DNA of 32,000 bases, from contig NZ_CP179200.1 of NCBI RefSeq assembly GCF_051201565.1, forward strand, positions 120,001-152,000, written 5' to 3'. The stretch is from Pseudothioglobus sp. nBUS_23. GTDB lineage: Bacteria; Pseudomonadota; Gammaproteobacteria; PS1; Pseudothioglobaceae. The notes beneath the pieces were generated by a model. It was not told the origin of the DNA. It saw only the letters and a list, made by a program, of their open reading frames with translations, and ran no database searches. Shown here one piece after another: positions 19,788-31,662 of the stretch; position 1 is the stretch's first letter; every line of letters starts with the position of its first letter. The translations under genes were made by a program, and so were the position numbers.

Positions 19788-20573
19788 ATGCCAAAAATCT
19801 ATATGTTGCATGCTAAGTTAAAGGTCTTTGTGTTGATATTTGCCTGCCAATTTCTTTTTATCACTCAAGCTTTGTCCAGTGAAATCAGAATTGCAGTGGC
19901 TAGTAATTTCTATTCAACGATGCAGGAGATTATTGTCCAGTTTGAATTAGAAAACACTGATACTTCTAAAGCAAATGAAATAGTTCTTATTCCAGGCTCC
20001 TCGGGAAAACACTTTGCCCAAATTATCAATGGCGCACCTTTTGATCTGTTTTTTTCAGCTGATAAAATAAGACCAACATTACTCGAGGAGCAAGGAGCTA
20101 TCAGAGAACAATCAAGATTCACTTATGCATTAGGAAGGCTTGCACTTTGGAGCCCTAGAAGTCCATTCATTGATTCAGAGGGAGAGGCTCTTTTTGATGA
20201 AGATTTTAGATTTATAGCTATAGCCAATCCTAAAATTGCACCTTATGGAATAGCATCTAAAGAGGTACTTATGTCCATGAAGTTATGGCAAGATTTGAAT
20301 AAAAAAATTGTAAGAGGAGAAAATATTGCACAGACATTTCAATTCGTCAGCAGCGGAAATGCAGAGTTGGGATTTGTTTCATATTCTCAAATTTTAGATT
20401 CAAATTTTAATTTAGGCGGCTCTTTTTGGCTAGTTCCTCAGTCGTTGTATAATCCAATTGAACAGCAAGCAGTGCTTTTAAGAGATAGCACTTTGGCAAG
20501 AGACTTTATTGCGTTTTTAAAATCTGAGAAGGCATTAAATCTAATTAAAAAAAATGGATATGATTTACCCTAA
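19788..20573 (+). CDS. modA: Molybdate ABC transporter periplasmic binding protein
   Basis: 261 aa. Signal peptide plus ModA-like IRIAVASNF, GSSGKHFAQIINGAPFDLFFSAD, APYGIASKEVL. The start may be the ATG at 19803. Followed by modB and modC. Confidence 0.88.
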   Translation: MPKIYMLHAKLKVFVLIFACQFLFITQALSSEIRIAVASNFYSTMQEIIVQFELENTDTSKANEIVLIPGSSGKHFAQIINGAPFDLFFSADKIRPTLLEEQGAIREQSRFTYALGRLALWSPRSPFIDSEGEALFDEDFRFIAIANPKIAPYGIASKEVLMSMKLWQDLNKKIVRGENIAQTFQFVSSGNAELGFVSYSQILDSNFNLGGSFWLVPQSLYNPIEQQAVLLRDSTLARDFIAFLKSEKALNLIKKNGYDLP

Positions 20574-21262
20574 TGTTAAGTGAAACAGATATTTCAGCGA
20601 TTAGTGTTACCATTAAATTGGCTTTACTCAGTACAGCCATATTAATTGCTATTGGAACGCCGCTAGCCTGGTGGTTATCGCAAACAAAGTTTAAATTTAA
20701 AGTTGTATTTGAGGCTATTATTGCATTGCCTCTGATACTGCCGCCAACCGTATTAGGCTTTTATTTACTAATGACATTAGGCTCCAATAGTCCATTAGCT
20801 GGAGTTTTAGAATATTTTGGAGGGGGTTCAATTGCCTTTACTTTCAGTGGCCTAGTTGTTGGATCTGTAATTTACTCACTTCCTTTCGTAGTTCAGCCAC
20901 TTCAAAATTCTTTCAGCACAGTTAGAAGTGAATCTTTGGAAGTGGCAGCAACTTTAGGAGCATCAAATATCGATCGATTTTTTACAGTTGCTGTTCCATT
21001 AGCACGATCTGGTTTTATAACAGCTGCAGTTCTCGGATTTGCCCATACCGTAGGTGAGTTTGGAGTTGTGCTAATGATTGGAGGAAACATTCCAGGCGAA
21101 ACAGGCGTTTTATCAATAGCCATTTATGATCATGTTGAGGCAATGGAGTATTCTCAAGCCCATTTATTAGCTGGTGGTTTACTGGTAGCTTCTTTTGTAA
21201 TGCTAATTTTTGTGTATCTCTTTAATCGTCATTTTTCACTAATGAGGAGCAGGGACTGGTGA
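20573..21262 (+). CDS. modB: Molybdate ABC transporter permease
   Basis: 229 aa, 5-6 TM. EAA-type loop: LEVAATLGASNIDRFFTVAVPLARSG. Its start abuts the modA stop. Confidence 0.9.
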   Translation: MLSETDISAISVTIKLALLSTAILIAIGTPLAWWLSQTKFKFKVVFEAIIALPLILPPTVLGFYLLMTLGSNSPLAGVLEYFGGGSIAFTFSGLVVGSVIYSLPFVVQPLQNSFSTVRSESLEVAATLGASNIDRFFTVAVPLARSGFITAAVLGFAHTVGEFGVVLMIGGNIPGETGVLSIAIYDHVEAMEYSQAHLLAGGLLVASFVMLIFVYLFNRHFSLMRSRDW

Positions 21263-22320
21263 TTGAATGCCAGTTAAAAATCAAGTTAAAAGGCTTCACA
21301 TTAGATGCTAAATTCACTACACCTGATAAGGGTATAACCGTTATTTTTGGACCCTCTGGCTCAGGTAAGACAACATTATTAAGAGCTATTGCAGGTCTTG
21401 AAAAGAGCGATTCAGGTTTTCTTAAAGTTGGCGATTCAATTTGGCAAACAGATGATAATTTTGTTCCAACACATAAACGTCAGATCGGCTATGTATTTCA
21501 GGATGCTGGCTTATTTGATCATCTTGATGTAAGTGGCAACCTTAATTACGTAACAAAAAGAAAAACTGGGCTCAAAAAAGTTTTTATTGATTCAATATAC
21601 ACTTTACTAGATATTGAATCATTACTGAATAGGCGAATAGGTCAGCTTTCAGGTGGTGAAAAGCAGCGGGTTGCAATTGCAAGAGCGTTATTGACTAATC
21701 CCAAAATTTTACTCTTGGATGAGCCTCTATCAGCTCTTGACCTTAAGCGTAAAAATGAAATTCTTCCCTACCTCGATAGTCTTCATAATCAATTAGAGAT
21801 TCCAATTCTTTATGTAACTCACTCACAAGATGAGACCTCAAGACTAGCAGACCACATTATGCTTATTGAAGATGGAAAAATTATTGGGAATGGACCAATT
21901 AATGAGATGTTGACTAGTTTTGAAATGCCCTTGTCTCACAGTGGTGATGCAATATCAATTTTTGAGGTCAGAGTGATTAGTCGTGATACTGATTTTAATT
22001 TGATGCATCTTGAATTTAATGGTGGACAATTTATTGTTCCGGATAATGCGTTGCCAATAGACAGTCTTGTCAGAATAAGAGTTGCAGCACGTGATGTTAG
22101 TATTACAAAAAAGAAGCGGTCTGATACAAGTATTCTAAATATTTTTCCAGCAGTTGTTGAAGAGATAGTTCCTGAAGGGAATGCTCAAGTCATCGTTCGA
22201 CTGACATTGAACGGAGTTGTATTGCTTGCATGCTTGACTAGAAAGTCTTCAGCTTCTCTTAAACTAGACAAAGGATCCAGCGTATTTGTTCAGGTTAAAA
22301 GCGTTGCGATTCTTAACTAG
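21259..22320 (+). CDS. modC: Molybdate ABC transporter ATP-binding protein with C-terminal TOBE/Mop domain
   Basis: 353 aa. GTG start overlapping the modB stop. Walker A GPSGSGKTT, signature LSGGEKQR, Walker B LLLDEPLSALD. C-terminal TOBE-like beta domain. Confidence 0.9.
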   Translation: MIECQLKIKLKGFTLDAKFTTPDKGITVIFGPSGSGKTTLLRAIAGLEKSDSGFLKVGDSIWQTDDNFVPTHKRQIGYVFQDAGLFDHLDVSGNLNYVTKRKTGLKKVFIDSIYTLLDIESLLNRRIGQLSGGEKQRVAIARALLTNPKILLLDEPLSALDLKRKNEILPYLDSLHNQLEIPILYVTHSQDETSRLADHIMLIEDGKIIGNGPINEMLTSFEMPLSHSGDAISIFEVRVISRDTDFNLMHLEFNGGQFIVPDNALPIDSLVRIRVAARDVSITKKKRSDTSILNIFPAVVEEIVPEGNAQVIVRLTLNGVVLLACLTRKSSASLKLDKGSSVFVQVKSVAILN

Positions 22321-23569
22321 TCTGAAGATTGGTTCTGAGTCTTTGGATAGGCCTTTCATCAATAAAGACATGAATAAGCGCAGTAATAGCTGCAATTATT
22401 GCAGCCCACCACCAGACCTGATTATATGAACCAGTTGTGTCAAAAAGGTAGCCCCCAAGCCAAACACCTGTAAATGAGCCAATTTGATGATTTAGGAACA
22501 CGATTCCGTAGAGAGTTCCCATAAATCTCAAACCAAACATCTGGGCGACCAATCCTGAAGTTGGCGGAACTGTAGCAAGCCATAGAAGGCCAGTAGCAAA
22601 AGAGAATGCATAGATTGTAAGTGTAGAAATTGGAATAACAAGAAACAAGACAATCACAACAGACCTTGCTGCATAGATATAAGTCAAAATCCATTTCTTT
22701 GAATAGATTCCAGATAGATGACCAGAGACGAGTGAGCCAATAATATTACAAAGACCAATAATCGATAAGCTAATTGCTGCAACAGAGCTATCAAACCCCT
22801 TATCCGCAAGGTAAGACGGCATATGAACTGTAATAAAGGCTAGCTGAAACCCGCACACAAAAAATCCAGCAATGAGAAGCCAATAATGAATGTGTCCAGA
22901 AGCCTCACTCAGAGCTTCTTTTAGGTTTTGTTGAGGTTCATTATCAACAGTAATATTAGTTTTCACATCACCCTTGAATACGGGCGAAAAAAGAATCATA
23001 ACTAGTGCTCCGATCGCCATCAAGATCAGTGCAACTTGCCACCCATAGGCAACTAGAAACTCTCTTGCAACAGGAATAAAAATGAACTGACCAGCTGAGC
23101 CTGCAGCTGTTCCTACTCCAAGTGCAAGAGCTCTTTTTTCAGGAGCAACCATCCTTGCCATTGCTGGCAGAACAACGCCTAGGCCTGTTCCAGAGATACC
23201 CATTCCAATAAGAATTCCTGCTCCTAAGTGGAGGCCAATAAAGCTGTCAGCGGTTGCTGTAATATAAAGGCCTAGAGAGTAGAAAATCGAGCCCACTATA
23301 ATAACTCTAGAGGTACCAAACTTATCTGCTATTGCACCTGCTATGGGTTGAGACAAGCCCCACAATAGATTTTGAAGTGCTAGAGAGAATGCAAAAACCT
23401 CGCGTCCATATCCGAATGTTTCTGACACAGGCTTTAAGAAAAGACCAAGTGAAGATCTAAAGCCAAAGTTAATAGCCAAAAGAACACTCGCCAATAAAAT
23501 TGCTAAACTAATTATTTTTTTATGATGAGCCATTTGTTTAACAAGAATAGTTTCCGACAGTATAACCAA
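22313..23569 (-). CDS. Major facilitator superfamily transporter (substrate unknown)
   Basis: 418 aa with about 12 hydrophobic helices in a 6+6 arrangement and a central loop. The true start may be Met13 at 23533 (MAHHKKII...). The 3' end overlaps the modC 3' end by 8 nt. Confidence 0.85.
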   Translation of the reverse strand: MVILSETILVKQMAHHKKIISLAILLASVLLAINFGFRSSLGLFLKPVSETFGYGREVFAFSLALQNLLWGLSQPIAGAIADKFGTSRVIIVGSIFYSLGLYITATADSFIGLHLGAGILIGMGISGTGLGVVLPAMARMVAPEKRALALGVGTAAGSAGQFIFIPVAREFLVAYGWQVALILMAIGALVMILFSPVFKGDVKTNITVDNEPQQNLKEALSEASGHIHYWLLIAGFFVCGFQLAFITVHMPSYLADKGFDSSVAAISLSIIGLCNIIGSLVSGHLSGIYSKKWILTYIYAARSVVIVLFLVIPISTLTIYAFSFATGLLWLATVPPTSGLVAQMFGLRFMGTLYGIVFLNHQIGSFTGVWLGGYLFDTTGSYNQVWWWAAIIAAITALIHVFIDERPIQRLRTNLQTS

Positions 23570-23642: not shown

Positions 23643-24356
23643 ATGCGAGTATTGGTTTTTCAGCATGTTGATTGTGAGCACCCTGGATCACTGAGACAAT
23701 TTTTAGCCGAGGACGGCATTGATTGGGATCCTGTTTATTTGCATCGCGGTGATAAAATTCCACATTTTGATGATTATGATGCACTTTGGGTAATGGGTGG
23801 TCCAATGGATGTATGGGATATTGAGGAAAATCCTTGGCTTGTTGATGAAAAAGCTGCAATTCGGCACTGGGTTAAAGATTTAAGAAAGCCTTATCTTGGT
23901 CTTTGTTTGGGGCATCAGTTGCTTGCTGATGCATTGGGCGGAACCTGTGGACCCCAAAAAATTCCAGAAATTGGCGTGCTTGAGATTGAGTTAACTGAAG
24001 AAGGAAAAAAAGATCCGCTATTTAAAGGAACAGCAGAGAAACAGCAATGCCTCCAATGGCACTCTGTCAGGGTTGCTCAGGCGCCTGAGGGAGCAATTAT
24101 TTTGGCGAATTCAGATGTATGTTCAATACAAGCAATGCGAATTGGAAAGAATGCTTGGTCTATGCAGTATCACGTAGAAATAGAGTCGGATACTGTTGAC
24201 AATTGGGGAGCCATTCCAGAATATGCAGAAGCGCTGAGAAATACATTGGGTCAGGGCGCCTTATCAGAACTCAAGCAAAAAACTGATCAAAATATTAGTC
24301 AATGTTTAAGTTGCGCTAAGCAAATTTATGACAACTTTATGGGACAAATAGTTTAG
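23643..24356 (+). CDS. Stand-alone class I glutamine amidotransferase-like protein
   Basis: 237 aa. GATase1 nucleophile elbow GLCLGHQLL (Cys) and the His-x-Glu pair in MQYHVEIE. No fused synthase domain. Confidence 0.8.
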   Translation: MRVLVFQHVDCEHPGSLRQFLAEDGIDWDPVYLHRGDKIPHFDDYDALWVMGGPMDVWDIEENPWLVDEKAAIRHWVKDLRKPYLGLCLGHQLLADALGGTCGPQKIPEIGVLEIELTEEGKKDPLFKGTAEKQQCLQWHSVRVAQAPEGAIILANSDVCSIQAMRIGKNAWSMQYHVEIESDTVDNWGAIPEYAEALRNTLGQGALSELKQKTDQNISQCLSCAKQIYDNFMGQIV

Positions 24357-24571: not shown

Positions 24572-25276
24572 ATGAGTGAAGAAGACGATTTTGACCTAAA
24601 TGATCTTGATGATAAGGAGCTCGTTGAGCAAATTCAAGATGACCTCTATGATGGTCTTGATGCTGAAGTAACTGAGGGAACTGAAATTCTACTTTCAAGA
24701 GGATGGGATGCTAACGACGTTCTAGGTGAAGCCTTAGTTGGTGGTATGAAGATTGTAGGAATAGATTTCAGGGATGGTATTCTTTTTGTTCCAGAAGTCT
24801 TAAAGTGTGCTGGTGCGATGAAGGGCGGTATGAGTATATTAAGACCTATACTTGCCGAATCAGCTGAAGATACATCATTAGGAAAGTTTGTTATTGGTAC
24901 TGTTAAAGGCGACATTCATGACATCGGTAAAAACCTTGTGGGGATGATGTGTGAGGGAGCAGGGTTTGAGGTCATTGACCTCGGCATTAACAATCCTGTT
25001 GAAAACTATTTAGAGGCAGTTGATACTCATGAGCCGGTTATCCTTGGAATGTCTGCATTACTCACCACAACAATGCCTTACATGGGAGTTGTTGTTGAGG
25101 AAATGGAAAAAAGAGGAATGCGAAAAGACGTACACATAATGTGTGGCGGCGCTCCTTTGAATCAAGAATTTGCTGATTCAATTGGTGTGCCTGCTTATGG
25201 TCGTGATGCTGCAAGAAGTGCTGAAATGGCCGAAGAACATGTCCGCGGCCTTGGTAAAAACCGTGCTCACAGATAA
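24572..25276 (+). CDS. Corrinoid (cobalamin-binding) methyl-carrier protein, MtgC/MttC-like
   Basis: 234 aa. B12-binding_2 helical cap plus a Rossmann-like B12-binding domain with DxHxxG (GDIHDIGKN), SxL (SALLTTT) and GG (CGGAPL) motifs. The N-terminal extension is unusually acidic. Confidence 0.9.
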   Translation: MSEEDDFDLNDLDDKELVEQIQDDLYDGLDAEVTEGTEILLSRGWDANDVLGEALVGGMKIVGIDFRDGILFVPEVLKCAGAMKGGMSILRPILAESAEDTSLGKFVIGTVKGDIHDIGKNLVGMMCEGAGFEVIDLGINNPVENYLEAVDTHEPVILGMSALLTTTMPYMGVVVEEMEKRGMRKDVHIMCGGAPLNQEFADSIGVPAYGRDAARSAEMAEEHVRGLGKNRAHR

Positions 25277-25898
25277 GGCAGTTGTTGATGAAAATAATAA
25301 AAGATTAGTATTAGGTTGTGGTGCGCTTGTTTACGATCTTTTAAGATTGTTAAAGCAAAACCCTTCGTTTTCAGATAGAGTCAACATTCAATGCTTACCT
25401 GCTAGTTGGCACAACTCCCCCCAATTAATTGCACCAGGTGTGGAGAAGTATTTGTCTGAGAATGCTCATCTTTATAAGGAAGTATATATAGCCTATGCTG
25501 ATTGTGGAACTGGTGGGGCGCTTGATAAGGTGCTCAATAAGTATAAGGCGAAACGAATAGAGGGAGCTCATTGCTATGAATTTTTTGCAGGTACAGATGC
25601 TTTTGAAAAACTTTCAGAAGAGGAAATAGGAACTTTTTATCTGACCGACTATTTGGTTAAAAATTTCAACAGGATAATGATTAAAGGTCTTGGACTTGAT
25701 AAGCATCCTGAACTTTTTGATGCCTACTTTAAGCATTATAAAAAACTTGTTTATTTGGCTCAAACAGAAAATGATGATTGGAAAAAAGATGCAGAGAAAT
25801 ACGCTAAGGATTTTGGTTTTGATTATGAATATAGGCTAGTAGGAACAGGGAGTCTTGATTCTGTTTTTGAAGAAATAGACATTGGGTTGTTAAGTTAA
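25239..25898 (+). CDS. DUF1638-like protein (unknown function, associated with corrinoid methyltransferase operons)
   Basis: The ORF frame is open from 25170. The domain-like core starts near KRLVLGCGALVYDLL. Plausible starts are ATG 25239 and GTG 25263, both overlapping the corrinoid gene 3' end. ATG 25170 would give a 107-nt overlap and a hydrophobic, likely spurious N-terminus. The family assignment is from memory of DUF1638 context and is uncertain. Confidence 0.6.
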   Translation: MSAALVKTVLTDKAVVDENNKRLVLGCGALVYDLLRLLKQNPSFSDRVNIQCLPASWHNSPQLIAPGVEKYLSENAHLYKEVYIAYADCGTGGALDKVLNKYKAKRIEGAHCYEFFAGTDAFEKLSEEEIGTFYLTDYLVKNFNRIMIKGLGLDKHPELFDAYFKHYKKLVYLAQTENDDWKKDAEKYAKDFGFDYEYRLVGTGSLDSVFEEIDIGLLS

Positions 25899-25921
25899 GA
25901 GTTATTTAGGATGAAAGAATT

Positions 25922-26824
25922 ATGTCAATTTTAAGTGCATTCACCTCAAAAGAGGAAAATATAAAGGTGAGCGAATCTCTTAAAGATTTTTTGGGTGATT
26001 TTTCAATAGAGGTTATGCCCCGTACTGCCTCAAAAATTGAGAGTTTCACTGAAATATTGCCCCAGAGCACTAGAATCTATATAGCCCATATTGAGGGTGT
26101 GCCTATTGAGGAGATGGTTGAAACTGCTAAAAGACTTGCTAGTGAGGGGTTTAATGTGATGCCTCATTTTCCAGCTCGCATCATTAAAGATAAGAGTATG
26201 CTCGATGACTGGATAAATAGATATCAGGGTGAGGCAGGAATTGAACAAGCGCTGCTTCTAGCTGGAGGAGTCAGTAAGCCTCATGGGGATTATGAAAACT
26301 CAATGCAGCTTGTTGAAACAGAATTATTTGAAAAATATAATTTTAAACACTTGCATTTTGCTGGACATCCAGAGGGTAATAAAGATATTGACTCCGATGG
26401 CTCAAATAAAAATGTTGATGCGGCCTTAAGTTGGAAGCAGAAATTTAAAGAACGGACTGATATTGCTTTGGCTTTAACTACACAATTCTGTTTTGAGGCT
26501 GAACCTGTTATTGAGTGGGCGAATTCATTGACCTCGAAAGGAATAGATATACCAATTCATATTGGGGTTGCTGGACCTGCTAAATTGCAGACATTGATTA
26601 AGTTTTCCATTGCTTGCGGGGTAGGACCATCACTTAGGGTTTTGCAAAAAAGAGCAAAAGATGTTAAGAAGTTACTACTACCTTTTGAGCCAAATGAGTT
26701 TTTAGAAGCTCTAGCTGAGCACAAAAAAGCAAATCCTGGCTTCAATATTACCAATATTCATTTTTTCCCATTGGGAGGGATTAATGTTAATGCTTCATGG
26801 ATAAAGAGCGCAACAAATAACTAA
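25922..26824 (+). CDS. metF: Methylenetetrahydrofolate reductase family protein (MetF-like)
   Basis: 300 aa TIM-barrel MTHFR-like protein (SIEVMPRTA..., ...ALLLAGG..., ...HFAGHPEG...). Sits between corrinoid and pterin-methyltransferase genes. The gene symbol is tentative. Confidence 0.7.
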   Translation: MSILSAFTSKEENIKVSESLKDFLGDFSIEVMPRTASKIESFTEILPQSTRIYIAHIEGVPIEEMVETAKRLASEGFNVMPHFPARIIKDKSMLDDWINRYQGEAGIEQALLLAGGVSKPHGDYENSMQLVETELFEKYNFKHLHFAGHPEGNKDIDSDGSNKNVDAALSWKQKFKERTDIALALTTQFCFEAEPVIEWANSLTSKGIDIPIHIGVAGPAKLQTLIKFSIACGVGPSLRVLQKRAKDVKKLLLPFEPNEFLEALAEHKKANPGFNITNIHFFPLGGINVNASWIKSATNN

Positions 26825-26840
26825 CTTAGGAGTAAATAAA

Positions 26841-27737
26841 TTGGCAACAACGACACTATCATCAACCTCCAAAGAGGTAACAATCGGCTTTGGCCATCCA
26901 TTTGTAATGATTGGAGAAAGGATTAATCCTACTGGAAGAAAAATTCTAGCTGCAGAAATGAAGGAAGGGGATTACTCAAGGGTAGTTGCTGATGCAATAG
27001 CACAAGTTGAAGCTGGTGCTCAAATGCTCGATGTCAATGCAGGTATTCCTTTGGCTGATGAACCTGCGATTCTTGCTGAGTCTATTAGGCGCGTGCAGGC
27101 AGTTGTAGACGTTCCCATATCAATTGACTCATCAATTATTGAGGCGCTTGAGTCTGGATTGGCAGCTTATCAAGGTAGAGCTCTTGTCAACTCTACTACC
27201 GGTGAAACTGAGGTTCTTGAACGTGTTCTCCCTTTAGTGAAGAAATATGATGCTGCGGTTGTTGCTATTTCAAATGATGAGACTGGTATCAGTGAGGATC
27301 CAAATGAAAGATTCAAGGTTGCTAAAAAGATTGTTGAGCATGCAGCTGATTATGGCATTAAACCTCAAGATGTAGTAGTTGATCCTCTGGTCATGCCAAT
27401 CGGTGCAATCTCTCAAGCTGGTAATCAAGTTTTTGAATTAGTAAGAAAGCTCAGAAGTGAGTTAAAGGTAAATACTACCTGTGGCGCATCCAATGTAAGT
27501 TTTGGATTGCCACAAAGGAATGGAATAAATAATGCTTTCTTGCCGATGCTAATTGCTGCAGGAATGACCTCTGCAATTGTTAATCCTTTGCATCCAGAGC
27601 TTGTGCAAGCAATTAGAGCAGGTGATGTTTTAACTGGAGTGGATGAGGGTTGTACGACTTGGATATCGGCCTATAAAGAACCTGCAAAAGAGGGTGATAA
27701 TCCCAGAGGTGAAAGGAGAAGAAGGAGACGCGCATAA
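26841..27737 (+). CDS. Pterin-binding methyltransferase (methyl-corrinoid:tetrahydrofolate methyltransferase, MtgA/AcsE/MetH-pterin-domain-like)
   Basis: 298 aa. TTG start preceded by TAGGAG. Pterin_bind features: IGERINPTGRK, MLDVNAG, SIDSS, LVNS, and CGASNVSFGLPQR. The C-terminus ends GERRRRRRA. Confidence 0.85.
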   Translation: MATTTLSSTSKEVTIGFGHPFVMIGERINPTGRKILAAEMKEGDYSRVVADAIAQVEAGAQMLDVNAGIPLADEPAILAESIRRVQAVVDVPISIDSSIIEALESGLAAYQGRALVNSTTGETEVLERVLPLVKKYDAAVVAISNDETGISEDPNERFKVAKKIVEHAADYGIKPQDVVVDPLVMPIGAISQAGNQVFELVRKLRSELKVNTTCGASNVSFGLPQRNGINNAFLPMLIAAGMTSAIVNPLHPELVQAIRAGDVLTGVDEGCTTWISAYKEPAKEGDNPRGERRRRRRA

Positions 27738-27740
27738 TTT

Positions 27741-28145
27741 ATGCCGAGTGTTGAGTATAAAGGTTCTTGTGTTTGTGGAAAGACGTCATATATAGCGTAT
27801 GATTTAAATGACATTTCATACTGCCATTGCGAACAGTGTAGAAAAATGACTGGACACTTTATGGCTGCCTCTCAAGTAAGTAGAGATAACATTAAGATCA
27901 AGGGTAAGATAAAGTGGTTTTATACTCACAAAGGTTCAAGACATGGCTTTTGTGATAATTGTGGAGCCAATATGTTTTGGCAGAATGATGACAAGTCTAC
28001 TATAAGCGTAACAGCAGGCAGTCTCGAGGATTCAAAGGGTTTGAAAACTTGGCACCATATATTTGTTGAAGAAAAAGGGTGTTATTACAATATCAATTCT
28101 AATAGCCCTCAATTCAAAGGATATGGTGAAAGTAATATTGATTGA
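27741..28145 (+). CDS. GFA/CENP-V family zinc-binding protein (glutathione-dependent formaldehyde-activating enzyme fold)
   Basis: 134 aa. Cys pattern CVCG...CHCEQCRK...CDNCG is typical of GFA domains. The start lies 3 nt after the preceding stop, behind AGGAGA. Confidence 0.8.
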   Translation: MPSVEYKGSCVCGKTSYIAYDLNDISYCHCEQCRKMTGHFMAASQVSRDNIKIKGKIKWFYTHKGSRHGFCDNCGANMFWQNDDKSTISVTAGSLEDSKGLKTWHHIFVEEKGCYYNINSNSPQFKGYGESNID

Positions 28146-30094
28146 TAATAGAGATGGAAGATAATTTTCAAGTATGTTTTACCCCTTCAGGTCGTCAATT
28201 TAAAGGCGAATTTGGAGACACTTTGCTTCAGGTTGCCCAGGATGCTGGAGTTGCAATACGCTCATTATGTGGGGGCTATGGCCAGTGCCATCAATGTTGG
28301 ATTGAAGTTTCTGAGGGCGAACATTCAAAATTTGGCGTTAAGTGTGAACCTGATAATGTCAGTGCTGTCACTAGGCTTGAAAAACAATTAATAATTGATA
28401 ATCCAACCTATAAGGGTAAGAGATTGGCTTGCCAATCTTGTATTCAGGGCGACCTTGTGATTGATGTTCCCGAGGAAAGTCAAGAGCATAAAGCCTATAT
28501 CAGTAAAAAAAATGAAAAGCAGAATTATACAGTTGCAAGTGCAATTAGTCTTTTTGATTGCACTCTGGACGAGTCAACCCTTGATGAGAATCCATCTGCA
28601 TCTGAAAACTTAGTTGCTCAACTAGACAAACAAGGTGTTAAAGCAAAGATTGACTTTAATCTTTTAAGAGGCTTGCAGCCTCTAATTCATGAAACCAAAG
28701 GAAATCTAACAGTTGCAGTTCGAGATAATAAACAAATTGTCGCTGCATACCCTCAAGGAAAACTTCAAATATTCGGCGCGGCAATTGATATAGGGTCTAC
28801 CACTCTAGCATTGTATGTCTATGATTTAAAAGATGGAGAATTAGTTTTTGAATCCTCAGCAATGAACCCACAAATTCGTTTTGGTGAAGATCTAATGAGT
28901 AGGGTTTCATACGTGATGATGAATAAAGGTGGGGATGAAAAATTAACAATTGCTGTTAGAACAAAAATCACTGAAATGCTTCATGATGCATGCGAAAACC
29001 TTGAGGTGGAATGGGATAAATTACTAGAAGTTGTTCTAGTTGGAAATCCAATTATGCACCATATATTTTTTGGAATCTCTCCAGTTGAATTGGGACAGGC
29101 TCCTTTCACTCTCTCTATTCGAAGCTGGCTAGATGTTGATGCCAAGGATTTAAGTTTTGAACTTTATCCAAAAACGAGATTATCATTTTTTCCTCTAATA
29201 GCTGGACATGTCGGTGCAGATACTGCAGCTGCCTATCTTAGCCAAATTGATATCATGCATTCCGAAACAACTTTACTTGTTGATATTGGTACAAATGCTG
29301 AAATTATGCTTTCCAAAAATGGCAAAGTATATGCAACCTCCTCACCCACAGGCCCTGCTTTTGAAGGTGCTGAAATTAGTTCTGGTGTTAGAGCAACCTA
29401 TGGTGCAATTGAGAGAGTGAGAATAGACAAAGAGACTTTAAAGGTTCGCTTTAAAGTGATTGGCTGTGATGCGTGGTCAGATGAGCCAGATTTTGAATTA
29501 GTTCAAATGAAGGCGGTTGGAATTTGTGGAAGTGGAATTATTGAGGCCATTGTTGCATTTGCCGAAGCTGGGATAATAGATCAAAGTGGGCTTTTTGTTG
29601 AGTCAATTGCACCTGAGCTTTTTTCAAAAAAAGGAAATACCACTCGTTTTTTATTAGTTGATCAGGGTGATAAATCAATTTATATTGAGCAAGTAGATAT
29701 TCGATCTATTCAGTTGGCTAAGGCTGCACTATCTGCAGGGGTATCAATACTGATGGACTATCTCGAATGTGATCACTTTGATAGAATACTGCTAGCAGGT
29801 GCTTTTGGAGCGCATTTAGATGCTAGATATGTTGCTTTGCTGGATATTATTCCAACTTCAACTGCTGAAAAAATCGTTTCAGTAGGAAATGCTGCAGGTA
29901 TCGGAGCAAGTGCAGCGCTATTGGATGTTAATAAGCGTAACGCAATTATTGAAGCTGTTGACAAGGTAGTGAAGATTGAAACCGCTACTGAACCAAGGTT
30001 TCAGGAGTTTTTTGTTGAAGCAATGAAGTTCAGTGTATCACCAGTAGAGCAACAACAAACCAAAAAAGTTAGACGCCGAAAACGAGTGTCATAA
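28142..30094 (+). CDS. RACo/RamA-type ATP-dependent reductive activase of corrinoid proteins ([2Fe-2S] ferredoxin domain + ASKHA ATPase domain)
   Basis: About 646-650 aa. The start is either TTG 28142 (4-nt overlap with the GFA stop) or ATG 28154. N-terminal plant-type ferredoxin cysteines (CGGYGQCHQC...LACQ). ASKHA phosphate motifs AIDIGSTT and LVDIGTNAE, then GICGSG. The C-terminus ends KKVRRRKRVS. Confidence 0.88.
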   Translation: MIIEMEDNFQVCFTPSGRQFKGEFGDTLLQVAQDAGVAIRSLCGGYGQCHQCWIEVSEGEHSKFGVKCEPDNVSAVTRLEKQLIIDNPTYKGKRLACQSCIQGDLVIDVPEESQEHKAYISKKNEKQNYTVASAISLFDCTLDESTLDENPSASENLVAQLDKQGVKAKIDFNLLRGLQPLIHETKGNLTVAVRDNKQIVAAYPQGKLQIFGAAIDIGSTTLALYVYDLKDGELVFESSAMNPQIRFGEDLMSRVSYVMMNKGGDEKLTIAVRTKITEMLHDACENLEVEWDKLLEVVLVGNPIMHHIFFGISPVELGQAPFTLSIRSWLDVDAKDLSFELYPKTRLSFFPLIAGHVGADTAAAYLSQIDIMHSETTLLVDIGTNAEIMLSKNGKVYATSSPTGPAFEGAEISSGVRATYGAIERVRIDKETLKVRFKVIGCDAWSDEPDFELVQMKAVGICGSGIIEAIVAFAEAGIIDQSGLFVESIAPELFSKKGNTTRFLLVDQGDKSIYIEQVDIRSIQLAKAALSAGVSILMDYLECDHFDRILLAGAFGAHLDARYVALLDIIPTSTAEKIVSVGNAAGIGASAALLDVNKRNAIIEAVDKVVKIETATEPRFQEFFVEAMKFSVSPVEQQQTKKVRRRKRVS

Positions 30095-30114
30095 TTATAG
30101 TATGGAGAATTTAA

Positions 30115-31662
30115 ATGGCTAGAGAAAGAAGAAGACGTAGAGGTGGATCTGAAGAAAAATCAGATTCAAATAGCATTCCTAAAGCGCCTGCATATATTAA
30201 ACGAAAAATACCACACTACAGTATTCTAAGTGATGATGATCTTAGTATTATTGAAGAAAATGCAGATACCATTCTAGAAGAGATTGGCATTGTTTTTTCT
30301 GAAGATCAAGAGGCACTTGATATCCTTGAAAAAGCTGGCGCAAGTGTTGATGGTATGAGAGTTAGATTTCCAAGAGGAATGTGCCGAAAACTAATTCAAG
30401 ATAATGCGCCAAAGCAGTTTACTCAATATGCACGAAATCCTGAAAGAAATGTTGAGATTGGGGGTAACAATATGGTTTTAGTGCCTGCTTATGGCCCCCC
30501 ATTTGTTCATGATCTCGATGAGGGTCGACGCTACGCAACAATTGAGGATTTTAGGAATTTTATTAAACTTGCTTACTTGTCAGATAATCTTCATCATTCA
30601 GGTGGAACCATTTGTGAGCCAGTTGACTTACCAGTTAATAAGCGCCACTTCGATATGGTGTACAGTCACATTAAATATTCTGATAAGCCTTTCATGGGCT
30701 CTGTTACTGCTGCAGAAAGAGCGCAGGATTCAGTTGATATGGTGAAAATAGTATTCGGAGATGAGTTTGTTGATAAAAACTGTGTATTGATTAATTTAAT
30801 TAATGCTAGTTCCCCAATGTCGTTTGATGCAACAATGTTGGGCGCACTTAAAGTCTATGCACGAAATAATCAAGCAACAATAATAACACCATTTATTGTT
30901 GCAGGAGCTATGGCTCCTACAACTGCAGTAGGTGTTGCAGCGCAAAGCCTGGCAGAAGGACTAGCAGGAATGGCATTTGCTCAGCTCATTAGACCAGGAG
31001 CGCCAGTCATTTATGGGAATTTTGTAACTGCAATGTCTATGAAATCTGGGGCGCCAACTTTTGGCACTCCTGAGGCCGCACATATGATGAATATTTCTGG
31101 AGCATTAGCGAGGCGATTGGGTGTTCCATTTCGAAGTGGGGGTGGCTTTAATGGAGCAAAGATGCCAGATGCTCAGGCAGGCTATGAAGCAGCTAACACT
31201 ATGCAAGCAACCCTGAATGCAAGTGTGAATTTTAATCTTCATACTGCTGGATGGCTTGAAGGTGGATTATGCATGAGTTATGAAAAATTTATTATGGATG
31301 CTGATCAAGCTGGGATGATGCGAGTTTCTGCTGAGGGAATTGATATGACTGAAAATGGTCAGGCAATGGAGGCAATTAGAGAAATTGGAAGTTTTTCAGA
31401 TGATGTGCCTAAGCATTATTTAGGATGTGAACACACCAAGAGAAATTTTAAGACAGCTTTTTATATGTCAGATGTTCTTGACGATAATAGTTTTGAACAG
31501 TGGGTTCAAGACGGTTCAAGAGATACAGCCTTGATTGCAAATGGGATTTATAAGAAAATGCTTTCAGACTATGAGTTGCCTCCACTAGATCCAGAAATTG
31601 ATAAGGCATTACTTGCATATATGAAGAGTAGAAAAGATAGTTTTGAGGATTCTAATGTTTAA
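30115..31662 (+). CDS. MttB-superfamily methyltransferase, non-pyrrolysine type (quaternary amine:corrinoid methyltransferase; substrate undetermined)
   Basis: 515 aa uninterrupted ORF with no in-frame TAG. MttB-family length and TIM-barrel-like core (…GAPTFGTPEAA…PDAQAGYE…HTAGWLEGGL…). The N-terminus is MARERRRRRGG. RBS GGAG lies upstream. Confidence 0.88.
   Translation: MARERRRRRGGSEEKSDSNSIPKAPAYIKRKIPHYSILSDDDLSIIEENADTILEEIGIVFSEDQEALDILEKAGASVDGMRVRFPRGMCRKLIQDNAPKQFTQYARNPERNVEIGGNNMVLVPAYGPPFVHDLDEGRRYATIEDFRNFIKLAYLSDNLHHSGGTICEPVDLPVNKRHFDMVYSHIKYSDKPFMGSVTAAERAQDSVDMVKIVFGDEFVDKNCVLINLINASSPMSFDATMLGALKVYARNNQATIITPFIVAGAMAPTTAVGVAAQSLAEGLAGMAFAQLIRPGAPVIYGNFVTAMSMKSGAPTFGTPEAAHMMNISGALARRLGVPFRSGGGFNGAKMPDAQAGYEAANTMQATLNASVNFNLHTAGWLEGGLCMSYEKFIMDADQAGMMRVSAEGIDMTENGQAMEAIREIGSFSDDVPKHYLGCEHTKRNFKTAFYMSDVLDDNSFEQWVQDGSRDTALIANGIYKKMLSDYELPPLDPEIDKALLAYMKSRKDSFEDSNV

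Follow-up and report, generated by a model that had tools for sequence, protein, structure and literature searches.

How can one freely diffusing B12 carrier be shared by four or more separate enzymes? This question is raised by an operon of Pseudothioglobus sp. nBUS_23 located in a window of 32,000 nucleotides (the whole stretch of DNA analyzed; positions 120,001 to 152,000 of contig NZ_CP179200.1), and it is the question addressed by the putative docking code considered below. An earlier sequence-only reading of the window had claimed that poly-Arg tails are present on the three enzymes that dock on the corrinoid carrier, and that these tails act as tethers for an acidic N-terminus of the carrier. 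We compared the termini of the window proteins with those of orthologous loci, with solved structures and with AF2 models. All coordinates refer to the window, and all features described are on its + strand.

Gene content and charged termini of the operon

Judged by its gene content, the operon is an aerobic MtgBCD / split methionine synthase system. MtgBCD is reported to provide a main route for the demethylation of glycine betaine and, in many marine bacteria without MetH, methionine synthase activity as well (PMC12478193). The genetics of glycine betaine demethylation and methionine synthesis come only from R. pomeroyi and P. inhibens, and SUP05/Thioglobus is listed explicitly among the carriers of the system (PMC12478193, PMC5764234). 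We found a stand-alone MtgC carrier (B12-binding_2 cap and B12-binding domain) orthologous to Ruegeria/Phaeobacter MtgC; an MttB-superfamily PF06253 methyltransferase without pyrrolysine, encoded by an uninterrupted ORF, together with a pterin-binding MtgD; and a reactivation module comprising a RamA/RACo-like activase and a DUF1638 protein (Pfam PF17650, PF17651, PF14574, PF07796). The MttB-superfamily and MtgD genes share location in orthologous loci, and the RACo and DUF1638 genes are co-located in 55/80 and 66/80 of these loci, respectively. A PF02574 gene, which would encode the homocysteine-binding subunit MtgE, was not found within the window; this is expected, because marine Gammaproteobacteria usually keep mtgE elsewhere (PMC12478193).

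The Arg tails of the window are located on three enzymes. MtgD, the pterin-binding methyl-corrinoid:tetrahydrofolate methyltransferase (26841..27737; PF00809, 107 bits), has a core that aligns to MeTr 2YCK over residues 18-279. Beyond the solved cores, there is a C-terminal extension AKEGDNPRGERRRRRRA (27684..27734), in which a short linker is followed by an Arg run (27714-27731), the C-terminus reading PRGERRRRRRA (27702-27734, stop 27735). The RACo/RamA-like reductive activase of corrinoid enzymes (28142..30094; PF00111, PF17650, PF17651, PF14574) has the domain order 2Fe-2S, linker, middle and ASKHA, and its core aligns to RACo 3ZYY over residues 9-627. Its C-terminal extension SVSPVEQQQTKKVRRRKRVS (30032..30091), beyond the 3ZYY core, consists of a linker and a basic run (30062-30085), and the protein ends with KKVRRRKRVS (30062-30091). 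The composition of the MtgD and RACo tails (R 33%, G 25%, A 19% in MtgD) suggests disorder. The MttB-superfamily (MtgB-type) substrate:corrinoid methyltransferase (30115..31662; PF06253, 720 bits), which aligns to 4YYC with E=3e-198, carries its extension at the N-terminus: residues 1-33 (30115..30213), predicted to be disordered, begin with MARERRRRRGG (30115-30147) and include the Arg run RERRRRR at 30121-30141. The alignment to D. hafniense MtgB (9YCE) begins at MttB residue 32, and residues 1-28 have AF2 pLDDT below 50 in a segment where the alignment is without depth. The Arg tails are thus outside the folded catalytic cores, since alignments to the solved cores stop short of them.

Three other products of the operon have no such tail: the DUF1638 protein (25170..25898; PF07796), with no tail enrichment in its family; a divergent MTHFR-like (MetF2-like) protein (25922..26824; Pfam MTHFR E=0.0011, below the cut-off); and a GFA-family protein (27741..28145; PF04828), an accessory insertion with a homologue in 8/80 loci. 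It should be noted that the DUF1638 ORF begins within mtgC, near its end, and that the true start is further downstream. The sequence-only reading had described the same three proteins as tail-less, and the four charged termini that it reported, those of MtgD, RACo, MttB and MtgC, proved exact in sequence and coordinates, with the families confirmed by Pfam.

Conservation and specificity of the arginine tails

The Arg-run pattern is not a result of chance. In the 31 window proteins, Arg and Lys account for 3.6% and 5.7% of residues, respectively; at least four Arg in 12 residues were found at 3 of the 62 window termini, those of MtgD, RACo and MttB only, and the probability of at least six Arg in 12 is 1.7e-6 per terminus. 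We analyzed 80 orthologous loci from Alpha-, Beta- and Gammaproteobacteria, Actinomycetota and Verrucomicrobiota, with 36-70% GC. At least four Arg in the last 15 residues are present in 52/54 orthologues of MtgD (median extension 17 aa) and in 51/51 orthologues of RACo (median extension 41 aa); at least four Arg in 12 residues are present at the N-terminus of 32/34 in-clade orthologues of MttB. The alignment of orthologues proposed with the sequence-only reading therefore shows the tails to be conserved. The tail sequences are variable, with 4-8 Arg in the last 15 residues; it is the composition and the terminal position that are conserved, not the exact sequence. The R:K ratio is 330:2 in MtgD tails and 319:14 in RACo tails of orthologues. 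The tail Arg residues are retained as their codons follow genome GC, AGR giving way to CGN; therefore, selection acts on the amino acid.

These data bear on an incidental origin of the runs, by low-complexity drift or by a nucleotide constraint such as the purine-rich Shine-Dalgarno sequence of the next gene, which the sequence-only reading had put forward as a partial cause of the MtgD run. AAGGAGA (27722-27728) does sit within the MtgD tail and precedes the start codon of GFA by 13 nt; however, the tail is kept in 52/54 MtgD orthologues and GFA is present in only 8/80 loci, the codons vary with GC at constant Arg residues, the runs occur on four families, and chance alone would give such a terminus with a probability of about 1e-6. 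This origin is refuted by the comparative data, and we regard its probability as virtually nil.

An unbiased scan of termini included all 59 ORF families that are present in at least 6 of the 80 loci. Among real genes, Arg-rich C-termini were found only in RACo, MtgD and a third family, an Arg-rich N-terminus only in MttB, and an acidic N-terminus only in MtgC. The third family is a PF02574 homocysteine S-methyltransferase, that is, MtgE; it is found in 16/80 loci and has the Arg tail in 16/16 cases. MtgE is the homocysteine methyltransferase and the fourth partner of MtgC (PMC12478193). Thus, the docking hypothesis came through a test that might have gone against it, as a fourth docking enzyme, located outside the window, has the same tail. 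No Arg tails are present on MetF2, MTHFR, DUF5981, DUF1638 and GFA, all from the same pathway and operons. The tails are restricted to enzymes docking on the carrier, as had been claimed; the claimed set of three has to be extended to four families.

We found that the tails co-occur with the acidic extension of MtgC across clades. In-clade carriers have this extension in 80/81 cases, whereas anaerobe-type MtgB systems are without extensions: there are no real cases for MtgB, 0/30 for carriers, 0/7 for RACo and 1/13 for the pterin methyltransferase. For example, 120 anaerobe MtgB start with MLPKF, and 101/120 have no Arg in the first 20 residues. The Chloroflexota sister clade, with carriers about 52% identical, has a less acidic extension and sparser Arg tails, and several Chloroflexota MtgE are tail-less alongside carriers that have the extension. 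In phylogenetic terms, the co-occurrence amounts to roughly a single contrast plus a graded sister clade. Covariation of charge within the clade is weak (MtgC versus RACo, rho 0.31; versus MtgD, 0.26; versus MttB, -0.20; phylogeny ignored). The expectation of co-evolution was thus borne out in presence and absence, and only weakly in charge (rho 0.26-0.31 for the positive pairs).

In the Chloroflexota clade, one MttB paralogue has no N-terminal extension and instead has a C-terminal extension of 45 residues ending in GRDARRRRRHLRVAAG; the location of this Arg tail at the C-terminus and not at the N-terminus indicates position independence. The occurrence of the tail at either terminus, its conservation in composition rather than position, and the general binding of polyanions by poly-Arg (established biophysics) would fit Arg runs that bind a polyanion (RNA, DNA, polyphosphate or anionic lipid) or drive a charge-based condensate, with co-localization but without specific contact between tail and carrier. 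We consider this improbable: the tails are confined to the carrier-docking families and missing from the other proteins of the pathway, and, given a carrier of opposite charge, a direct partner fits better than a shared polyanion.

Another explanation is that the tails act within their own enzymes, as an auto-inhibitory or protective lid on the acidic corrinoid-binding groove or as a solubility or charge-balancing appendage, and that the MtgC extension is unrelated. All partner cores have a net negative charge (-2 to -3 per 100 residues), and the flexible linker of 17-41 residues is long enough to fold back. However, such a role is very improbable, as it leaves unexplained both the strong preference for Arg over Lys and the presence of the same appendage on four unrelated folds only where the carrier has an acidic extension.

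The acidic carrier and a putative docking mechanism

MtgC (24572..25276; PF02607, PF02310) consists of a helical cap and a Rossmann B12-binding domain, and is 63-79% identical to MtgC in the 80 loci, including those of Ruegeria arenilitoris, R. atlantica and Ruegeria sp.; the best match of its AF2 model is MttC of the MttB-MttC complex 7XCN. With a net charge of -25 and pI of 4.36, it is uniformly the most acidic component of the system (-10.9 charges per 100 residues versus -2 to -4 for the others). Its own C-terminus, unmentioned in the sequence-only reading, is mildly basic (GLGKNRAHR).

The first 38 residues of MtgC (24572-24685) contain 17 Asp/Glu and one Lys, which agrees with the earlier count; the acidity of this segment is confirmed, whereas its description as a 38-residue tail is not. 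Only residues 1-15, MSEEDDFDLNDLDDK (24572..24616), with 8 Asp/Glu, form an extension absent from solved homologues, with the conserved pattern M-[SA]-[DE]3-5-(I/F/L)-x-L-x-x-L-x-D. Residues 16-38 (24617..24685) are cap helices 1-2, acidic but folded, aligning to helix 1 of 1Y80, MttC and MtaC; the alignment of cap helix 1 starts at residue 5 of 1Y80 and at residue 6 of MttC (7XCN_M), and the Pfam B12-binding_2 domain begins at MtgC residue 18. In the AF2 model, residues 1-4 have pLDDT below 50; the average rises from 61 over residues 1-10 to 95 over residues 11-20, and the value is about 95 for residues 11-40. Residues 9-38 are ordered, the first four to eight residues are poorly modelled, and the extension beyond residues 1-4 packs onto the cap. 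Because most of the acidic region is predicted to be folded cap helix and only residues 1-4 fall below a pLDDT of 50, tail-to-tail pairing is, on this model, an over-simplification. Cap helix 1 is acidic also in systems without Arg tails.

The cap helices contain a DDLYDG motif (24638-24655), of which D23, D24, L25, Y26, D27 and G28 are invariant within the A1 clade. The presence of this motif follows that of the tails no less closely than the acidic run does: the tailed Chloroflexota sister clade, with a much less acidic N-terminal run, retains the motif, and carriers of 51% identity or lower have lost it, at exactly the point where the extension is gone too. DUF1638 behaves in a similar way, being found in 66/80 in-clade loci and in 0 outgroup loci. 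Since DUF1638 and the invariant DDLYDG also co-occur with the tails, the target of the tails could be other than the acidic run. The tails may serve an MtgC-centred assembly by binding the DDLYDG face of cap helix 1, with the cap held off the cobalamin (a "cap-opening key"), a general acidic surface of MtgC, or a DUF1638 scaffold. The acidic elements are on the mobile cap, the movement of which is needed for catalysis (PMC9842639), and DUF1638 is genetically required for the split methionine synthase, with no known role (PMC5764234). Conversely, DUF1638 has only a mild negative charge (-3.8 per 100 residues) and is absent from +/-10 kb around several tailed Chloroflexota loci, and the acidic composition of the MtgC N-terminus is itself conserved in 80/81 carriers. 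We regard these alternative targets as rather unlikely.

The tails are real, conserved extensions beyond the catalytic cores, specific to the carrier-docking families and co-occurring with the acidic carrier type. The putative docking feature is real, and a docking mechanism is plausible: the Arg runs probably tether the separate proteins of the system together, and we infer that they bind MtgC, at the N-terminal extension or at cap helix 1, and aid turnover. Free MtgC has to be visited in turn by MttB/MtgB as methyl donor, by MtgD and, elsewhere, MtgE as acceptors, and by RACo for reductive repair. Each visiting enzyme has, at one extreme terminus, a probably flexible linker ending in 5-8 Arg, and the acidic extension of MtgC is placed on the first helix of the mobile cap domain. 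In the most likely mechanism, the runs would serve as interchangeable, terminus-independent docking peptides that raise the local concentration of the carrier at each active site, permit fast and mutually competitive exchange of partners, and substitute functionally for the covalent linkers that join the same modules in one-chain MetH. That the Arg runs are electrostatic docking tethers for the acidic N-terminal/cap surface of MtgC, replacing MetH linkers, is a reading that we hold with evenly balanced confidence.

More tentatively, and with some doubt, the poly-Arg run may be a portable address tag for the MtgC hub, usable at either terminus and on unrelated folds, docking on the acidic cap as a non-covalent replacement of MetH linkers and providing a sequence rule for feeders of the B12 methyl shuttle. 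The run has been seen on MttB paralogues for different methylated substrates, on a pterin methyltransferase, on a homocysteine methyltransferase and on an ATP-dependent repair activase. If true, the address tag would predict which enzymes in a genome feed the shuttle. The docking code, if true, would make tail deletion or charge swap a simple handle on shuttle assembly and partner competition, and MttB paralogues and other MtgC users would be recognizable from sequence alone; it would also offer the engineering of split B12 enzymes a natural case in which charge-complementary peptides at the termini stand in for covalent domain linkers.

Relationship to known corrinoid systems

The closest known system is MtgBCD(E) of Ruegeria pomeroyi and Phaeobacter inhibens, which has the same genes (MtgC, MttB-family MtgB, MtgD, RamA/RACo-like activase, DUF1638 and a MetF paralogue; PMC12478193, PMC5764234); the window MtgC is 65-66% identical to that of Ruegeria loci. 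Terminal Arg runs or the acidic extension are not mentioned in PMC12478193, PMC5764234 or a 2025 preprint on MtgBCD, we found no account of them in the literature, and the Arg tails are apparently a new observation on a known system. The anaerobe MtgB-MtgC-MtgA system of Desulfitobacterium hafniense and the methanogen MttB-MttC system have the same chemistry and folds (TIM barrel, cap and Rossmann carrier, pterin/CoM methyltransferase, RamA), but no extensions: the first residues of MtgB already belong to the core and those of the carriers to helix 1, and nothing follows the core in RACo and the pterin methyltransferases.

With PKS/NRPS docking domains, the acidic C-terminal tip of SSB and electrostatic ACP-partner docking, separate enzymes likewise come to share one carrier by means of short terminal peptides or an acidic hub. 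In SSB, an acidic tail on the hub faces folded basic pockets of the partners; the polarity differs from that of the Mtg system, and the proteins are unrelated. To our knowledge, no poly-Arg tails have been described on partner enzymes of the PKS/NRPS, SSB and ACP systems.

MtaC, similarly to MtgC, is a corrinoid carrier with an extra segment upstream of the cap, and its alignment to the window carrier does not begin before MtaC residue 37. This N-terminal extension docks in a groove of MtaB and stabilizes the complex (PDB 2I2X; PMC9842639). The MtaC segment has about 36 residues and one dedicated partner in a tight complex, whereas MtgC has 15 acidic residues, for which the candidate match is poly-Arg on four partner families.

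MtgC has been reported to be phylogenetically distinct from the B12 domain of MetH (PMC12478193). MetH comprises the same modules as the Mtg system (Hcy, Fol, Cap/B12 and reactivation), which take turns at the B12 domain. In the 8SSC alignments, a short linker connects the C-terminus of MetH Fol with the N-terminal end of the cap, and the corresponding termini of MtgD and MtgC are oppositely charged. The modules of MetH are covalently tethered, whereas the separate Mtg proteins have a putative electrostatic tether.

Gene content and charged termini of the operon

Seven genes, all in the same orientation, occupy positions 24572-31662 according to an ORF and Pfam reading of the window. The corrinoid carrier MtgC (24572-25276, +), which consists of a Pfam B12-binding_2 cap and a B12-binding domain, is followed by DUF1638 (ORF 25170-25898, +; PF07796), a divergent MTHFR-like (MetF2-like) protein (25922-26824, +) matched by Pfam MTHFR only at E=0.0011, below the cut-off, the pterin-binding methyltransferase MtgD (26841-27737, +; PF00809), a GFA-family protein (27741-28145, +; PF04828), a RACo-type reductive activase (28142-30094, +; Fer2, RACo linker, middle and ASKHA domains), and an MttB-superfamily methyltransferase (30115-31662, +; PF06253, 720 bits). 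This is the aerobic MtgBCD, or split methionine synthase, system, known from genetics in Phaeobacter inhibens (PMC5764234) and Ruegeria pomeroyi (PMC12478193). SUP05 is explicitly named among the groups that carry it (PMC12478193), and proteins named Candidatus Thioglobus (SUP05) are among the closest relatives of the window carrier. In the nomenclature of PMC12478193, the MttB-family enzyme is MtgB. There is no mtgE, the homocysteine methyltransferase gene, in the window.

It should be noted that two of the mechanical ORF starts are probably too far upstream: the TTG at 25170 of DUF1638 overlaps the last 107 nt of mtgC (the true start likely lies near 25239-25284), and the TTG at 28142 of RACo overlaps the GFA stop (the start is likely the ATG at 28154). 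The GFA gene, inserted between mtgD and the RACo gene, is accessory: just 8 of the 80 related loci have a homologue. About 30 related loci have a canonical MTHFR (PF02219) and a DUF5981 partner instead of the MetF2-like gene, and 33 encode a small PF13769 "Virulence_fact" protein. The genes 5' of the operon are a molybdate-type ABC transporter set (19788-22320) and a major-facilitator-like membrane protein (22313-23569, minus strand), both named from ORF translations alone, and a class-I glutamine amidotransferase (23643-24356; PF00117 by Pfam).

The sequence-only reading had placed Arg runs at the C-termini of MtgD and RACo and at the N-terminus of MttB, and an acidic run at the N-terminus of the carrier; all four termini match the translations at the positions claimed, and DUF1638, the MTHFR-like protein and GFA indeed have no tail. 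The GC content of the window is ~37%, and Arg makes up 3.6% of the residues in its 31 proteins, compared to 5.7% for Lys. At least 4 Arg in 12 residues are found at 3 of the 62 termini, exactly those of MtgD, RACo and MttB, and the binomial probability of at least 6 Arg in 12 is 1.7e-6. Given this low Arg content and the 3/62 Arg-rich termini, a chance origin of the runs was ruled out. MtgC, with a net charge of -25 and a pI of 4.36, is the most acidic protein of the operon set.

Conservation and specificity of the Arg tails

Using one genome per species and the MtgC alignment as an anchor, we collected 80 loci with 10 kb flanks from Alpha-, Beta- and Gammaproteobacteria, Planktophila and Thermoleophilia (Actinomycetota), and Udaeobacter (Verrucomicrobiota), with GC contents from 36% to 70%. 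At least 4 Arg were found in the last 15 residues of MtgD in 52 of 54 complete orthologues and of RACo in all 51, and in a 12-residue window of the MttB N-terminal extension in 32 of 34 orthologues; at least 5 Asp/Glu were found in the 15 residues ahead of helix 1 of MtgC in 80/81. Even MttB paralogues of just 24-37% identity carry the Arg-rich extension. The idea that the runs are incidental sequence is refuted by these comparative data, and we give it practically no credence. N-terminal features could also be created by misplaced start codons; inspection of the upstream frames, in which every start codon was marked, excluded this artefact.

The tails use Arg nearly exclusively, with Arg:Lys ratios of 330:2 in MtgD and 319:14 in RACo. 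Low-GC loci encode these Arg residues with AGR and high-GC loci with CGN; codon choice thus shifts with GC while Arg stays, which is indicative of selection on the amino acid, not on DNA. The suggestion that the run at 27714-27731 reflects the Shine-Dalgarno sequence of the next gene fails, because the tail is kept where GFA is absent and its codons follow GC; nucleotide-level constraint as a source of the tails was rejected on the same grounds. The median extension is 17 residues in MtgD and 41 in RACo, rich in Arg, Gly, Ala and Pro, and lies outside the catalytic cores: alignments to MeTr 2YCK, RACo 3ZYY and D. hafniense MtgB 9YCE end before the tails. Residues 1-28 of MttB have AlphaFold pLDDT <50, a weak indication since the alignment has no depth there. 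A role of the tails as an intramolecular lid or in solubility appears quite improbable.

Specificity was assessed by clustering all ORFs of at least 110 residues from the 80 loci and scoring the 59 families present in at least 6 loci, with annotation ignored. Among real genes, Arg-rich C-termini were confined to three families, RACo (86% of members), MtgD (79%) and family 16 (94%); MttB alone had Arg-rich N-termini (89%), and MtgC alone had acidic ones. Five further families (12, 22, 31, 36 and 39) scored as Arg-rich, but on inspection consisted of antisense or wrong-frame ORFs from high-GC loci. Family 16 is a homocysteine S-methyltransferase (PF02574), i.e., MtgE, the fourth enzyme obliged to dock on MtgC (PMC12478193). 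All 16 members near mtgC have at least 4 Arg in the last 15 residues, for example ...GRERRRRRG; apart from L063 (2710-3771, +), tailed MtgE occurs in loci L008, L015, L026, L036, L037, L040, L055, L061, L065, L067, L073, L077, L078 and L080. Because MtgE lies outside the window, it provides an independent test that the docking hypothesis could have failed. The confinement of Arg tails to carrier-docking enzymes is therefore borne out, but not their restriction to exactly three families. In the same scan, no tails were found on DUF1638, MetF2, MTHFR, DUF5981, the small PF13769 protein or GFA. Co-localisation of the tailed enzymes through a polyanion or a condensate is disfavoured by this lack of tails on the non-docking pathway enzymes, and we consider it unlikely.

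The acidic face of the carrier and the limits of the distribution

The claimed 38-residue acidic N-terminus of the carrier holds in part. Residues 1-15 are a true extension, with pLDDT <50 at residues 1-4 only and a mean of 61 over residues 1-10, whereas residues 16-38 are cap helices 1-2: they align from residue 5 of 1Y80 and residue 6 of MttC, and lie inside the Pfam cap domain with pLDDT of about 95. Cap helix 1 contains the motif DDLYDG (24638-24655), invariant in the clade and in a Chloroflexota sister clade. An exhaustive MtgC search of protein representatives showed the extension and invariant DDLYDG to be limited to carriers that share 52% identity or more with MtgC; at 51% identity or below, carriers start at helix 1 and the motif is lost. 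DDLYDG follows the partner tails at least as closely as the acidic run, and the true site of docking may lie there. The alternative that the tails aim at DDLYDG, at the cap face or at DUF1638, and not at the acidic run, is thus a serious minority possibility; DUF1638 co-occurs with the tails, but is only mildly acidic. The carrier also has a mildly basic C-terminus of its own (25247-25273, ...GLGKNRAHR), unmentioned in the sequence-only reading; outside its closest relatives, this ending recurs in only a few carriers (...RKNKRAHR), and more distant orthologues end in ...VGKNR or similar.

The outgroup was the anaerobe-type system, represented by D. hafniense MtgB rebuilt from a PDB alignment, 120 relatives and 80 metagenome loci. 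Unlike the clade, this system has no extensions on MtgB, carrier, RACo or pterin methyltransferase, bar a few outliers. Its MtgB starts at the core (MLPKF...), with no Arg in the first 20 residues in 101/120; its carriers begin two or three residues before helix 1, with an acidic extension in 0/30; RACo ends at the core in 7/7 and the pterin methyltransferase in 12/13. The few numerically Arg-rich N-termini are start-codon artefacts in over-extended ORFs. The predicted co-occurrence of tails and acidic carrier extension is consequently observed: the clade has both and the anaerobe-type loci have neither.

The most divergent carriers with the extension are from Chloroflexota; they keep DDLYDG but have only 2-6 acidic residues in the first 15. 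Their RACo tails contain 5-7 Arg with other residues interspersed, and their pterin methyltransferase tails 6-7 Arg. MtgE has a tail in two of these loci and ends at the core in three (L165:10686-11585, L166:10233-11123 and L168:10788-11675), beside a carrier that keeps its extension and a RACo or pterin methyltransferase whose tail is retained; the tether model has to account for this exception. An MttB paralogue in L166 (5777-7315, +), 26% identical to the window MttB, starts at the core and has a 45-residue C-terminal extension ending GRDARRRRRHLRVAAG, i.e., the Arg tail is on the opposite terminus. This switch within the MttB family argues for a flexible, position-independent tag, not a structural element. 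The view that the MttB Arg N-terminus is a family legacy, based on the Pfam profile spanning it, is weakened by the anaerobe clade without it, and further by this paralogue.

The sharp presence/absence split amounts in essence to a single phylogenetic contrast, supplemented by a graded sister clade. Inside the clade, correlating acidic with Arg counts gave rho of 0.31 for RACo (p=0.03), 0.26 for MtgD (p=0.06) and -0.20 for MttB, with kinship ignored; quantitative charge covariation, being weak, was set aside as evidence.

A possible docking role and comparison with known systems

MtgC is the sole partner common to MtgB, MtgD, MtgE and RACo, and is uniformly the most acidic protein, with a median charge per 100 residues of -10.9, compared to -3.8 for DUF1638 and -2 to -3 for the enzymes. 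Its distinctive acidic elements are the N-terminus and the first helix of the cap, a mobile domain that must swing off cobalamin upon partner binding (PMC9842639). On balance, we give roughly even chances to the reading that the Arg runs dock the enzymes electrostatically on the acidic surface of MtgC, as peptides that can stand in for one another. Such peptides would hold the multi-partner shuttle assembled, yet permit competitive exchange of partners. Since Arg is preferred to Lys almost without exception, the contacts may be specific to the guanidinium group, as bidentate salt bridges or as interactions with the invariant Tyr.

The MtgBCD system itself is already known, whereas the tails are apparently new: they are not mentioned in PMC5764234, PMC12478193 or a 2025 preprint, nor in a broader full-text search, although most subscription journals are outside its coverage and absence is unproven. 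The tails are conserved and readable from sequence, and would give an ecologically important B12 system a docking feature that has apparently gone undescribed, for which the proposed mechanism is plausible.

Two known systems offer a comparison. Alignments to 8SSC show that the Fol domain of MetH continues from its C-terminus through a short linker into the N-terminal end of the cap, and the equivalents of these linked termini, the MtgD C-terminus and the MtgC N-terminus, bear opposite charges. This geometry is suggestive, but it is meant as an analogy and implies no common descent, since MtgC reportedly stands apart from MetH in phylogeny (PMC12478193). The nearest precedent is MtaC, in which an N-terminal extension docks in a groove of MtaB (PMC9842639).
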